Assembly (NCBI GenBank): GCA_963844245.1 | Contig: CAWJNJ010000005.1 | Span: 331,889-395,888, forward strand | Origin: an uncultured Acidobacteriota bacterium | GTDB lineage: Bacteria; Acidobacteriota; Vicinamibacteria; Vicinamibacterales; 2-12-FULL-66-21 | Length of the DNA stretch: 64,000 nt | Direction: 5' to 3' | Shown here: positions 31,327 to 36,024 of the stretch, in pieces | Layout: each line of letters opens with the position of its first letter | Position numbering within the stretch: position 1 is the first letter of the stretch | Translations under genes and position numbers: made by a program | The notes under the pieces: generated by a model | The model's database searches: none | Told to the model about the DNA's origin: nothing | Seen by the model: only the letters and a program-made list of their open reading frames with translations

Positions 31327-33405
31327 TCAAAGAAAAAGAGGACCGAACACAACCGCGACAATAGCCATCAGTTTCAACAGGATATTCAGGCTCGGGCCAG
31401 AGGTGTCCTTGAACGGATCGCCTACGGTATCACCGACGACGGCCGCACGGTGAGCATCTGAGTTCTTTCCGCCAAAGTGACCCTGCTCAATATATTTTTT
31501 GGCGTTGTCCCAGGCCCCTCCGGCGTTGGCCATCATCAGGGCGAGCAGCGCGCCAGAACCGATCGATCCCACCAGCAGCCCGCCCAGGGCCTCCGCACCG
31601 AGGGTCACACCGATCAGGATCGGGACGACGACCGCCAGTGCCCCGGGGAGCACCATTTCCTTGATCGCCCCGTCGGTGGCGATCCGCACGGCCCCGGCCG
31701 CGTCAGGAGGGTTGATCCCCTCCATGATGCCGGGGATCTCACGGAACTGCCGGCGCACTTCCTCGACCATCTTCATCGCCGCTCGTCCCACGGCCCCCAT
31801 CGTCAGGGCCCCGAACAGGAACGGCATCAGTGAGCCGATCAGGAGGCCGAGCAGGACGTTGACATCGAGCAGATTGAACACGGTAATCCGCGTCACCTGC
31901 GAGTACGACACCATCAGCGCCAGCGCGGTCAGCACCGCGGACCCGATGGCGAACCCCTTTCCTGTCGCCGCCGTCGTGTTCCCGAGCGAATCCAGGGCAT
32001 CGGTGCGCTCCCGAACCTCTGCGGGCAGGCCCGCCTGTTCGGCAATGCCCCCGGCGTTGTCGGCAACTGGACCATAGGCGTCGGTCGCCAGCGTGACCCC
32101 GAGGGTCGACAACATACCGACAGCAGCTAGCGAGATACCGTAGAGTCCTGCCAACTTGAAAGTGATCCAGGTCGCCGCGACCAAGGTCAGCAGTGGGATG
32201 GTGGTCGACAACATTCCGAGCGCCAGGCCACCGATAATGACGGGGCCCGTCCCCGTCACTGCCTGTGCGGCGAGGTCCAGCGTCGGCTTGTATTCATACG
32301 CTGTGTAGTATTCCGTGGCTGTGCCGATCACCTGACCGGCGACCAGGCCGACGACGACCGCCCAGAACAGCCTGAAATCCAGGCCCAGGTACGCACACAG
32401 CGCCGCGGTCGAGAGCAGGACCAGGATGCCGGCGCCAAAAACGCCGGCCCGCAGCGACCACAGGAGTTTGCCCATGCCGGCATCCTCACTGGTGCGGACG
32501 AAGAAGGTCGCAATGATCGCGCAGACCGCGCCCATCCCCATGATCCCGAGCGGCAGTGCGAAGGCAATCGAGTGGAACGTCGCGACCGACCCGGGCGGCA
32601 GCACCGCATTCTCACCAGCCCCCACGATCCCGATCGCACCAAGCGACATCGTCGCGACAATGGCGCCGGTGTAGGACTCGAACAGGTCGGCGCCCATGCC
32701 GGCGACGTCACCCACGTTGTCGCCGACGTTATCGGCGATGGTCGCCGGGTTGCGGGGATCGTCCTCGGGAATGCCGGCTTCGACCTTGCCGACGAGATCG
32801 GCGCCGACGTCGGCGGCCTTGGTGTAGATGCCACCGCCGACGCGTGCGAAGAGCGCGATGGATGATGCGCCGAACGCAAAGCCGGTCAACGGCTGATAGT
32901 GCTGAAAGACCAGGTAGATGCCGGCGAGAAACACGAGACTGAGACCGACCACCGTCATCCCCATGACGGCCCCAGAGGAGAACGCGACGCGGAGTGCGGG
33001 ATTCAGGCCGATGCGGGCTTTTGCCGCCGTGCGCACGTTGGCGCGGACGGCGACATACATGCCGATGTAGCCAGAGCCCGCCGACGAGAGGGCGCCAAGC
33101 ACATAGGAGATGGCCGTACGGGGGAGGTTCGTGAACGGCCCCTCCTGCACGATGCCGAGGGCCGCGAACTTGCCGGTCACGTCGTAGTCCACGAAGACGG
33201 CGATCAGGACGCTGACGATCACGACGAACACTGCGAGGAACGTGTATTCCCGCCGCAGGAACGCGTCCGCCCCCTGCTGGATCAGGGCGGCGATCGAGCG
33301 CATCAGGTCCGTCCCGGTATCTTCGCGGAGCACGCTCCGGGCGGTGACGAGCGCGAAGGCCAGCGCCAACAGGCCGCCGCCGAGAGCGACGTAGAGGAGT
33401 GCCAT
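31327..33405 (-). CDS. hppA: membrane-bound pyrophosphatase, K+-dependent-type signature
   Basis: About 692 aa from [10 protein letters not shown] (ORF track starts at 33459). [38 protein letters not shown] (Ala at the K+-dependence position), DNAKKYIE and [16 protein letters not shown]. Confidence 0.9.
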
Positions 33406-33516
33406 CAGGAAATTGGCTGACGCGTAACTGTCAGGACGGCAAAGTGGGGGCCGAAGCACCCCCGAAGCGCAACTCTGACCATGCGATACGATGCAGGCGA
33501 GCTTTTCAACCGGCCT

Positions 33517-36024
33517 CTAGGGCCGCTGCACCTGGATGCGCATCCCGTAGAACGAGCGGTGCACGAAGAAGGCCGACGCCAGCAGGAACGCTGCCGACAG
33601 CGACAGGCTCAGACCGTGTCCGTACTGATCCGTCAACTGGACGCCGAGTTCGACGGCAAGGAGCCCGAAGAGTGTCGTGAACTTGATGACCGGATTCATC
33701 GCCACCGATGACGTGTCCTTGAAGGGGTCCCCGACGGTGTCGCCGACGACCGTCGCCGCATGGAGCGGCGTGCCCTTCTCTTTCAGTTCGACCTCGACGA
33801 TCTTCTTGGCGTTGTCCCAGGCGCCGCCGGCGTTGGCCATGAAGATGGCCTGGTAGAGCCCGAACAACGCGATCGAGATCAGGTAGCCGACGAAGAAGTA
33901 CGGCTCGAGCAAGGCAAAACCGAGCGTTGCGAAGAACACGCCCAGGAAGATGTTGAACATGCCCTTCTGCGCGTACTGGGTGCAGATCTCGACGACCTTC
34001 TTGCTGTCGGCGACCGACGCCCTGCTCGCGCCCTCATCCAGGCGGATGTTGGCCTTGATGAATTCCACGGCCCGATAGGCGCCGGTGGTCACGGCCTGGA
34101 TCGAAGCACCGGTGAACCAGTAGATGATGGAGCCGCCGGTGATCAGGCCGAGCAGGAAGGGCGGGTGCAGCACCGACAGGTACTGCAAATACGCAGGGTC
34201 CAGCCGGTGCGTCAGCACGACGATGATGGAGAAAATCATTGTCGTGGCGCCGACGACGGCGGTGCCGATCAGCACCGGCTTCGCGGTCGCCTTGAACGTA
34301 TTGCCGGCGCCGTCGTTTTCCTCGAGCAGGTGCTTGGCACGCTCGAAGTTGGCGTCGAAGCCGTAGTCCTTCTTCAGCTCTTGCTTGATGTTGGGAATCG
34401 ACTCGATCGTGGACAGCTCGTAGACCGACTGCGCGTTGTCGGTCACGGGACCGTAGGAGTCGACCGCGATCGTCACGGGGCCCATGCCAAGGAAGCCAAA
34501 GGCGACGAGGCCGAACGCGAACACCGCCGGTGCGATCATCTCGCCGGCAAGGTGGAACTGGGTGCTGACGCCGTAGGCAATCGCCATCAGGGCCACGATC
34601 ACCATGCCCAGCCAGTAGGCGCTGAAGTTACCGGCAACGAGGCCTGACAGGACGTTCAGCGAGGCGCCGCCCTCACGCGACGAGATCACCACTTCGCGGG
34701 TGTGCGCCGACTCGGTAGAGGTGAAGATCTTGACCAATTCCGGGATGATGGCGCCCGCAAGAGTGCCGCAGGTGATGACCGACGAGAGTTTCCACCAGAG
34801 CGATCCGTCGCCCATGTCGGCGATCAGCCAGTAGGACACGATGTAGGTCAGGGCTACGGAAACGAGCGACGTCAGCCACACCAGCGTCGTCAGCGGCGTC
34901 TCGAAGTTCATGGTCGCGGCCTTGCTGAAGCGCGCGGTCGCCCACGACTCGTTGATCAAGTAGGAGGCGCCGCTCGCGATGACGCCCATGACGCGCATCA
35001 CGAAGATCCAGACCAGCAACTGAACCTGCATGGTCGGGCTGGTCACGGCCACCAGGATGAAGGAGATCAGCGCGACACCCGTGACGCCGTAGGTTTCGAA
35101 GCCGTCCGCGCTCGGTCCGACCGAGTCGCCGGCGTTGTCGCCGGTGCAGTCCGCGATGACCCCCGGGTTCCGCGCATCGTCTTCCTTGATGTTGAAGACG
35201 ATCTTCATCAGATCGGCGCCGATGTCGGCGATCTTGGTGAAGATGCCGCCGGCAATGCGAAGCGCAGCGGCGCCGAGCGACTCGCCGATGGCAAAGCCGA
35301 TGAAACAGGAGCCGGCGTAGTCACCCGGAATGAAGAGGAGGATGCAGAGCATGATCAGCAGCTCGACGCTGATCAGCAGCATGCCGATGCTCATGCCCGC
35401 CTTCAGCGGGATCGCATAGATCGGGAAGGGCCGTCCTTCGAGGCCGGCAAACGCGGCGCGGGAGTTGGCGAACGTGTTGACGCGGATGCCGAACCAGGCG
35501 ACGCCGTAGCTGCCCGCGATCCCGACCAGACTGAACAGCAGGATGACGGCGACCTTGAAGGGCGGGAAGCCATGGACGACTGCGCCGGTGACCGGATCAA
35601 CTGTCGTCGCCAGGCCACCAAAGTAGACCGCGCAGATGATGCCGATGAAGACCCAGAGCATCATGATGAAGCGGCCCTGCGTCACGAGATATGTCTTGCA
35701 GGTCTCGTAAATGAGCTCGGAGATCTCGAGCATCGACCGGTGGACCGGCAGGTTCTTCAGGTTGTTGTAGATGACCAACCCGAACATCAGGCCCAGCACG
35801 CAGACACCAAGGCCGGCCATGAGGAGAGTGCGCCCGTTGATCCCCTGGAACTCGACTGAGCCGAGGTCCGGCAGCACGAGGTTCGCTTCACCACCCGCGT
35901 GTTGCACCGCGGGGGCGGTCTGCGCGGCGGCCTGCGCCCACACCACTGGAGAAAGCGCGCCCATGCACAGAATCACCCACACCGCGACTATCAGTGCGCG
36001 GGTCGAACTTCCCTTAGCCATCAA
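33517..36024 (-). CDS. divergent membrane-bound pyrophosphatase, Lys (K+-independent-type) signature, N-terminal signal-like extension
   Basis: 835 aa. [48 protein letters not shown] and [18 protein letters not shown]-terminus ALIVAVWVILCMGALSPVVWAQAAAQ. Confidence 0.8.
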   Translation of the reverse strand: MMAKGSSTRALIVAVWVILCMGALSPVVWAQAAAQTAPAVQHAGGEANLVLPDLGSVEFQGINGRTLLMAGLGVCVLGLMFGLVIYNNLKNLPVHRSMLEISELIYETCKTYLVTQGRFIMMLWVFIGIICAVYFGGLATTVDPVTGAVVHGFPPFKVAVILLFSLVGIAGSYGVAWFGIRVNTFANSRAAFAGLEGRPFPIYAIPLKAGMSIGMLLISVELLIMLCILLFIPGDYAGSCFIGFAIGESLGAAALRIAGGIFTKIADIGADLMKIVFNIKEDDARNPGVIADCTGDNAGDSVGPSADGFETYGVTGVALISFILVAVTSPTMQVQLLVWIFVMRVMGVIASGASYLINESWATARFSKAATMNFETPLTTLVWLTSLVSVALTYIVSYWLIADMGDGSLWWKLSSVITCGTLAGAIIPELVKIFTSTESAHTREVVISSREGGASLNVLSGLVAGNFSAYWLGMVIVALMAIAYGVSTQFHLAGEMIAPAVFAFGLVAFGFLGMGPVTIAVDSYGPVTDNAQSVYELSTIESIPNIKQELKKDYGFDANFERAKHLLEENDGAGNTFKATAKPVLIGTAVVGATTMIFSIIVVLTHRLDPAYLQYLSVLHPPFLLGLITGGSIIYWFTGASIQAVTTGAYRAVEFIKANIRLDEGASRASVADSKKVVEICTQYAQKGMFNIFLGVFFATLGFALLEPYFFVGYLISIALFGLYQAIFMANAGGAWDNAKKIVEVELKEKGTPLHAATVVGDTVGDPFKDTSSVAMNPVIKFTTLFGLLAVELGVQLTDQYGHGLSLSLSAAFLLASAFFVHRSFYGMRIQVQRP

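Follow-up and report, generated by a model that had tools for sequence, protein, structure and literature searches.

We analyzed a window of 64,000 nucleotides (nt) from an uncultured soil bacterium of the order Vicinamibacterales, phylum Acidobacteriota (contig CAWJNJ010000005.1, positions 331,889 to 395,888). Its minus strand carries two adjacent open reading frames (ORFs), which very probably encode two intact pyrophosphate-energized cation pumps of two different, already known subfamilies of membrane pyrophosphatase (mPPase). The upstream ORF, gene A (33517..36024, minus strand), specifies a divergent-clade mPPase of 835 residues when read from TTG 36024. We consider ATG 36021 (834 residues) to be the likelier start, because GGAGGAG lies 7-8 nt before this ATG and the closest homologue also has 834 residues. 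The downstream ORF, gene B (31327..33405, minus strand), specifies a canonical K+-dependent-type mPPase of 692 residues, and its start is supported by the same length in nearly all of its 120 best homologues. Both ORFs match the Pfam model PF03030 (H_PPase; gathering score 29.7) over its full length, with 597.9 bits for gene A (E = 3.8e-179, profile positions 1-644 of 645) and 856 bits for gene B (E = 2.7e-257, profile positions 1-645 of 645). A preliminary description of this DNA had reported two intact mPPases on the same strand, and both the genes and the motifs quoted for them were found where it had placed them. It had also put the genes 112 nt apart; they do adjoin on the minus strand, but the spacer between them (33406..33516, minus strand) measures 111 nt.

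Gene A belongs to the divergent mPPase subfamily known from Chlorobium limicola and Cellulomonas fimi, and its product is predicted to be a K+-independent, Na+-regulated H+-pyrophosphatase. It is placed there because it is 69% identical (82% similar) over 798 residues to a C. limicola protein (P0441, 806 residues) and because both proteins match the NCBIfam model NF001950, with 1413.6 bits for gene A and 1485.4 bits for P0441 against a cut-off of 826; every other mPPase model gave gene A 330 bits or less. P0441 was recovered by querying with a Chlorobiaceae member of the clade; NCBI assigns it to C. limicola, and UniRef names it 'K(+)-insensitive pyrophosphate-energized...'. Homologues of gene A number thousands, and the nearest of them (82-98% identical) are labelled Vicinamibacterales or Acidobacteriota. 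When one genome of each species was scanned, clade members turned up in Bacteroidales, Planctomycetota, Chlorobiaceae, Actinomycetota, Acidobacteriota, Alphaproteobacteria, Bdellovibrionota, Myxococcota and other groups; they are 52-78% identical to gene A (67-70% for the members from Chlorobiaceae and Actinomycetota). A search of a representative library returned mostly fragments, and the only full-length 50%-identity clusters to score higher than about 590 bits were P0241 and P0247. P0247 (823 residues, from a Logan assembly) forms a remote branch of the divergent clade; it keeps GNTFKATSK, DCVGDNAGDSGGP and the signal peptide and has a longer C-terminal tail. It was dropped as a route to Chlorobium, being an outlier with 42-43% identity to gene A and 793.8 bits, below the NF001950 cut-off. 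All 80 of the genome loci recovered were closer to gene A than to P0247.

Gene A is 30-31% identical to gene B and 23-27% identical to the solved structures, and the divergent enzymes are reportedly 23-34% identical to canonical mPPases and transport H+ electrogenically, with inhibition by Na+ and biphasic effects of K+. The preliminary description had regarded the strong divergence as a peculiarity of gene A. That view did not hold, given that the motifs concerned are invariant in a known subfamily and that the C. limicola enzyme is 69% identical. Gene A is an addition, from an uncultured Vicinamibacterales bacterium, to a known and characterized subfamily, and not a new kind of system.

Enzymes of the C. 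limicola class are K+-independent, carry Glu at position 6.53, pump H+ and are inhibited by Na+ and by high K+ (PMC6882861, Table 1 and the section on Na+-regulatory sites, citing Luoto et al. 2015). In this class, according to PMC7438732, Na+ displaces Mg2+ from the enzyme. By analogy with the C. limicola enzyme, the product of gene A would hydrolyze the Mg2 complex of pyrophosphate (PPi) without a need for K+, Lys12.46 standing in for the K+ cofactor, and it would export H+ from the cytoplasm, with Na+ acting as an inhibitor. The labels that databases give to gene A, 'sodium-translocating pyrophosphatase' (NCBI) and 'K(+)-stimulated ... sodium pump' (JGI), are, by orthology, probably wrong.

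The assignment is borne out at the level of single residues. For the list of functional positions we followed PMC6882861, in Ballesteros-Weinstein numbering anchored on Vigna radiata in HMMER alignments. That paper prints the substrate-binding Asn as N12.53; counted from K541 = 12.50, it is V. radiata N534, that is, 12.43. Lys578 of gene A aligns with Lys12.46 of Pyrobaculum aerophilum (8B37, GNTTKAT) and with Ala537 of V. radiata (4A01). Thus the Lys in A and the Ala in B do stand at the true K+ determinant, 12.46, as had been proposed. The K+-independence signature of A, GNTFKATAKPVLIGTA (residues 574-589; 34258..34305, minus strand), comprises N12.43, K12.46 (Lys578), A12.49 and K12.50. The block in transmembrane helix 6 (TM6), DCTGDNAGDSVGPSADGFETYG (residues 292-313; 35086..35151, minus strand), holds D6.35, D6.39, D6.43, D6.50 and the gate Glu E6.53 (E310), with Thr at 6.54 and Val at 6.57. 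The site for PPi, Mg2+ and water is complete in A (K5.58, D5.61, D5.65, E5.76, D5.77, D6.35, D6.39, D6.43, D11.57, N12.43, D15.61, K15.64, D16.31, D16.35, K16.38 and D16.39), and D6.26, D6.50, E6.53, D11.50, K12.46, K12.50 and K16.50 are likewise present. Loss of catalytic Asp residues from the 835-residue protein had been raised as a possibility; all essential Asp, Glu and Lys residues are kept.

We also conducted a census of the divergent clade, covering 160 members from 164 loci and more than 10 phyla. All 23 of the catalytic, coupling and gate residues checked in A are invariant in the 160 members. The same holds for the two motifs GDNAGDS[VIC]GP[ST]AD[GA]FETYGV and GNTFKA[TS][AS]K, each found in 160 of 160. 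Position 12.49 is Ala in 157 members, as in A (GNTFKATAKP), and Ser in three. S5.43 corresponds to Ser249 of A and is invariant in a four-sequence alignment of A, P0241, P0247 and B. Judged by this conservation, the unusual motifs of A are an essentially invariant signature of a known subfamily and not a degeneration. The fold agrees: an AlphaFold2 (AF2) model of A, built on a 53-sequence alignment, showed the 16-helix mPPase fold with a mean predicted local distance difference test score (pLDDT) of 81.8 and a predicted template modelling score (pTM) of 0.83. Compared with the structures from V. radiata (4A01), Thermotoga maritima and P. aerophilum (8B37), the model gave target-normalized template modelling scores (TM-scores) of 0.83-0.90 at 23-27% identity. 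Among the solved structures, no member of the divergent clade was found.

Around this core, A has additional elements. An N-terminal extension of about 60 residues resembling a signal peptide had been pointed out before, and it proved to be a conserved property of the clade; TM1 of A starts at about residue 63. The predicted Sec signal peptide spans residues 1-30 (35935..36024, minus strand) and has an n-region, a hydrophobic core and a cleavage site (VVWA, then QA). The hydrophobic core covers residues 4-33, and the AF2 model places a helix at 6-32, followed by a low-confidence linker. The predicted cleavage, between VWA30 and Q, leaves a 14-residue spacer before GEANLVLPDL (residues 45-54; 35863..35892, minus strand), a conserved motif of the mature N-terminus that is predicted to be periplasmic. 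The motif is kept as [SG]EA[DN]LxLPDL in Bacteroidota, Planctomycetota, Chlorobiota, Actinomycetota, Acidobacteriota and others. In most clade members a signal peptide ending in AxA directly precedes the mature N-terminus, for example MKKILSFLSLLLLPVLTFA followed by SEADLPIPDL. In C. limicola, PKAMA is followed by SEADLVLPDL, whereas in A the 14-residue spacer separates GEANL from the predicted site of cleavage. A strongly hydrophobic window precedes the motif in 143 of the 157 clade members that have at least 20 residues there. A lipobox, L-A-G-C, replaces the AxA signal in four of the five Actinomycetota members (LLAGC or LGLAGC; L114, L119, L131 and L156), which predicts an N-terminally lipidated polytopic pump.

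Two further elements lie beyond the N-terminal feature described earlier. Between TM11 and TM12, A carries a clade-specific insertion, ELKKDYGFDANFERAKHLLEEND (34312..34380, minus strand), which in the alignment of A, P0241, P0247 and B is about 13 residues longer than the canonical connection and which forms a short helix at 545-553 in the AF2 model. At the C-terminus, an extension that canonical mPPases do not have (33535..33615, minus strand) consists of a 17th hydrophobic helix and a basic tail, HRSFYGMRI. The hydropathy peak of this helix lies at 802-821, the AF2 model shows a helix at 802-826 after TM16 at 752-800, and the alignment with B stops at TM16. The tail motif is kept as (V/F)(H/Y/W)RSF(Y/F)xM(R/T)I in Chlorobiaceae and Actinomycetota. 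Since the termini of canonical mPPases lie on the periplasmic side in the solved structures, the signal would export the N-terminus of A, and the 17th helix would bring the C-terminus back to the cytoplasm. The export signal, the SEADLxLPDL peptide and the 17th helix are seen in no solved mPPase structure. A search of an open-access library gave no relevant paper that deals with a signal peptide or a 17th helix for the divergent clade, or with the mPPases of Vicinamibacterales.

Gene B, by its sequence, is a canonical mPPase of the K+-dependent type, and we infer that it is activated by K+. It passes the generic NCBIfam models NF001960 (885.6 bits, cut-off 546) and TIGR01104 (807 bits, cut-off 652) only, and no specific NCBIfam subfamily model reaches its cut-off. 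Against the solved structures it scored 558 bits for V. radiata 4A01, with which it aligns end to end, 527 bits for T. maritima 4AV3 and 465 bits for P. aerophilum 8B37. Its K+-dependence signature (31936..31983, minus strand) aligns as GNTTAATGK with GNTTAAIGK of 4A01 and places Ala opposite Ala537, giving A12.46, G12.49 and K12.50; the K+-dependent combination of Ala12.46 with Gly or Ala at 12.49 is thus present. The TM6 block (32665..32736, minus strand; motif ADLFESYTG), likewise aligned to 4A01, gives D6.50, E6.53, S6.54 and G6.57, with the gate Glu at 6.53 as in Na+-PPases and Na+,H+-PPases. The full set of PPi-, Mg2+- and water-binding residues is present, and position 16.46 is Asn.

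The enzyme from V. radiata shares the K+ signature with B and is its best-scoring solved structure, but its gate is reversed: it has Gly297 at 6.53 and E301 at 6.57, whereas B has Glu at 6.53 and Gly at 6.57 and therefore lacks the plant-type gate Glu. The K+-dependent Na+-PPases of T. maritima (4AV3) and C. limicola (the canonical enzyme) share A12.46, G12.49, E6.53 and S6.54 with B. The canonical C. limicola enzyme is reportedly a Na+ pump. Unlike these enzymes, B fits generic NCBIfam models only. E6.53 together with A12.46 occurs not just in Na+-PPases and Na+/H+-PPases but also in a minority of the K+-dependent H+-PPases (PMC5150537). A gate Glu at 6.53 is thus a necessary but not a sufficient mark of Na+ transport, and by its sequence B may pump either Na+ or H+. 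We tried to class B by NCBIfam subfamily models, by the ranking of its scores against the Protein Data Bank (PDB) and by position 16.46, and none of these discriminated. A contrast between an H+ pump A and a Na+ pump B, as suggested in the preliminary description, is plausible.

Some homologues of B, at 84-87% identity, bear the labels Gemmatimonadaceae and Acidimicrobiia, which suggests cross-phylum transfer or mis-binning. One of them, an 87%-identical homologue in a Gemmatimonadaceae bin (L169, 7001-13387), lies by a gene for an NhaC-type Na+/H+ antiporter and two SDF-family (PF00375) transporter genes. These neighbours hint weakly at Na+ as the ion of B.

Several points weigh against the assignment of the locus to two pumps of known subfamilies. 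The Na+ regulation and the H+ specificity of A are carried over from an orthologue with 69% identity, and P0441 is tied to the enzyme of Luoto et al. (2015) by the name of the organism, by UniRef and NCBI names and by secondary descriptions. Gene B may belong to either ion class, with about 51% identity to the canonical neighbour in C. limicola and matches to generic NCBIfam models only. It has no obvious Shine-Dalgarno sequence in the window, and its co-transcription with A is no more than plausible.

The divergent enzyme of C. limicola provides the closest parallel. It shares with A the NF001950 match, K12.46, E6.53, the catalytic residues, the clade motifs, the signal peptide and the extra C-terminal helix, and a canonical mPPase gene adjoins the divergent gene there too. 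In C. limicola (L165/L166, 3482-8421) the divergent gene lies head-to-head with the gene for a canonical mPPase of 694 residues, 434 bp apart and divergently transcribed, whereas here the partner lies downstream on the same strand. The host also differs, being here an uncultured Vicinamibacterales bacterium. The presence of both types in one genome, even side by side, is therefore already exemplified by C. limicola.

We also analyzed the surroundings of the pair in related genomes. In Vicinamibacterales the mPPase genes occupy a variable slot in the order tgt-yajC-secD-secF-uppP(BacA)-DUF502-[mPPase]-tonB-exbB-exbD-exbD-...-relA. Both genes, in the order A-B-tonB, are found in the window and in three further loci (L082, L083 and L084), the A genes of which are 92-100% identical to that of the window. 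In loci of similar divergence, L002 (92%), L003 (84%), L001 (83%) and at least 11 more, A occurs alone and is followed directly by tonB. Three independent lineages carry B alone in the same slot (L167/168, L172/173 and L170/171). Given that the slot holds A, B or both, the pair is facultative and not an obligate two-component system. Differential loss from an ancestor with A and B is the simplest reading of these states, and the idea of a tandem built for co-expression is weakened by the variability of the slot. In L170/L171 (5326-6615, 7001-9079), B is inverted relative to the slot and lies beside a Transposase_mut gene (PF00872), and uppP is missing from the block; this layout indicates a local rearrangement.

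Outside this order, the divergent gene has a canonical gene no more than 6 kb away in L085 (Prolixibacteraceae), L122 (Blastocatellia), L134 (Bdellovibrionota, on the opposite strand) and L136 (Acidobacteriota). Such pairing occurs in 4 of 80 diverse genomes, whereas a rough estimate puts the chance expectation at about 0.2 of 80. The partners fall into different NCBIfam subfamilies (NF001955, NF001954 and NF001961), and all those with an intact ORF, with the C. limicola partner included and the frameshifted copy of L136 left out, have A12.46, G12.49, E6.53 and N16.46. In L136 (4916-7141), the canonical mPPase lies directly upstream of the divergent gene and is spread over three reading frames; the broken copy is either a pseudogene or the result of frameshifts in a long-read assembly. 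No canonical partner was found in the 6-kb upstream flanks of the Chlorobiaceae loci L115 and L118, and the upstream flank of L129 was too short to tell. The recurrent juxtaposition allows a functional link between the two types of mPPase.

Based on these observations, we considered whether A and B form a selected, co-regulated module of two pumps, in which Na+ inhibits the H+ pump A and activates the Na+ pump B, so that PPi energy moves from the proton-motive to the sodium-motive force as cytoplasmic Na+ rises. Such a switch is speculative, and it would act in this way if B is a Na+ pump. The two genes share a strand and are separated by 111 nt, in which a scan detected no terminator-like site, and their co-transcription is plausible. 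The order A-B-tonB is kept in relatives whose A is 92-100% identical. The pairs within 6 kb in the four genomes, which exceed the rough chance estimate, and the pair in C. limicola come in every orientation, and the partners, although of different canonical subfamilies, all have A12.46 and E6.53. The antiporter and SDF-family genes beside the Gemmatimonadaceae homologue of B would also fit. However, sister lineages carry one or the other gene by itself at the very same place, a neighbouring partner is lacking in most clade members, the Na+ specificity of B is hypothetical, and the four tandem loci do not share a conserved spacer sequence. Taken together, we regard such a module as possible but on balance doubtful. 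An RNA element or terminator in the spacer was also considered and was rejected: Rfam gave no match anywhere in the window, the spacer folds no better than shuffled sequence (z = -0.17), it is not conserved, and the scan found no terminator.

The tandem might also be a recent chance juxtaposition brought about by horizontal transfer and have no functional meaning. The B homologues labelled Gemmatimonadaceae and Acidimicrobiia, at 84-87% identity, would agree with this, as would the locus with B alone, inverted beside a transposase gene, and the difference in slot occupancy among close relatives. However, the occurrence of A alone and B alone in one slot is more simply explained by differential loss from an ancestor that had both, and the labels from other phyla, taken from metagenome bins, may be due to faulty binning. 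Furthermore, the GC content is uniform over the locus (0.63-0.65), and no remnants of mobile elements lie beside either gene in the window. A chance origin of the tandem therefore seems rather unlikely.

A broader proposal can be made from the pairing and the architecture together. It holds that divergent H+-PPases are repeatedly and selectively paired with K+-dependent mPPases of the E6.53 (Na+) type, here as a Na+-switched two-pump module in one slot, and that the clade-wide export signal, the SEADLxLPDL peptide and the 17th helix form an unrecognized regulatory element at the exit channel or the dimer interface. In its entirety this proposal is improbable on the present evidence.

It is also conceivable that gene A is a canonical K+-independent H+-PPase of the P. 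aerophilum, Rhodospirillum rubrum or Arabidopsis AVP2 type beside an enzyme of the Ala type. A shares with these enzymes Lys12.46, the gate Glu 6.53 and the 16-helix core (target-normalized TM-score 0.88-0.90), and its best sequence match in PDB is 8B37. In the canonical K+-independent family, however, Thr12.49 is evolutionarily coupled with K12.46 (PMC10897367). The coupled signature (GNTTKATTKG) is absent from A, which has Ala at 12.49, and Thr at 6.54. The identity over the structural alignment is 26-27%, and A, which matches a separate NCBIfam model, has three elements that the solved mPPases lack: a signal peptide, an insertion and a 17th helix. A scored 185 bits against the 8B37 chain and B 465 bits, so that B, much more than A, resembles the canonical K-type family. 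Given A12.49, the residues at 6.54 and 6.57 and the 8B37 scores, a separate lineage has K+ independence by way of Lys12.46. Membership of A in the canonical K+-independent family was ruled out by A12.49 and the bit scores, and we consider it very unlikely indeed.

That gene A is a decayed, inactive paralogue of B, altered by relaxed selection, as its 30% identity to B and its departure from blocks near-invariant in canonical mPPases might suggest, can be dismissed with hardly any reservation, since the census of 160 members found the 23 residues invariant across many phyla, the deviant motifs are themselves fixed across the clade, orthologues 52-78% identical occur across phyla, A has both an unbroken reading frame and a confident AF2 model.

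The reading of the locus as two intact pumps of two known subfamilies is chiefly of use for annotation. The divergent clade is widely distributed, both among soil Acidobacteriota and across many other phyla. The variable slot, which holds A, B or both, offers a natural experiment on redundancy versus specialization of pump types. The recurrent pairing with E6.53-type partners leads to a testable idea, namely that Na+ switches the mode of PPi energy conservation in oligotrophic soil bacteria. The interest that remains thus lies in the slot, in this pairing and in the clade-wide export signal with the 17th helix.

Finally, we examined the genes on either side of the pair. Between B and tonB, about 40 nt before the start of tonB, a scan for sigma-70-type sites found a sigma-70-like promoter, TTGACA-18-TATAAT, which matches the consensus at 12 of 12 positions (31188..31217, minus strand). 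Because of this perfect promoter, tonB-exbB-exbD-exbD probably forms a separate transcription unit. The DUF502 gene directly upstream of gene A (36047-36668, minus strand) is split by a frameshift near 36330-36352. When an intact 207-residue DUF502 homologue (from L082) was compared with the window, its residues 1-113 were found in frame -3 and its residues 106-207 in frame -1. The split may stem from an error in sequencing or assembly, or the gene may be a pseudogene.

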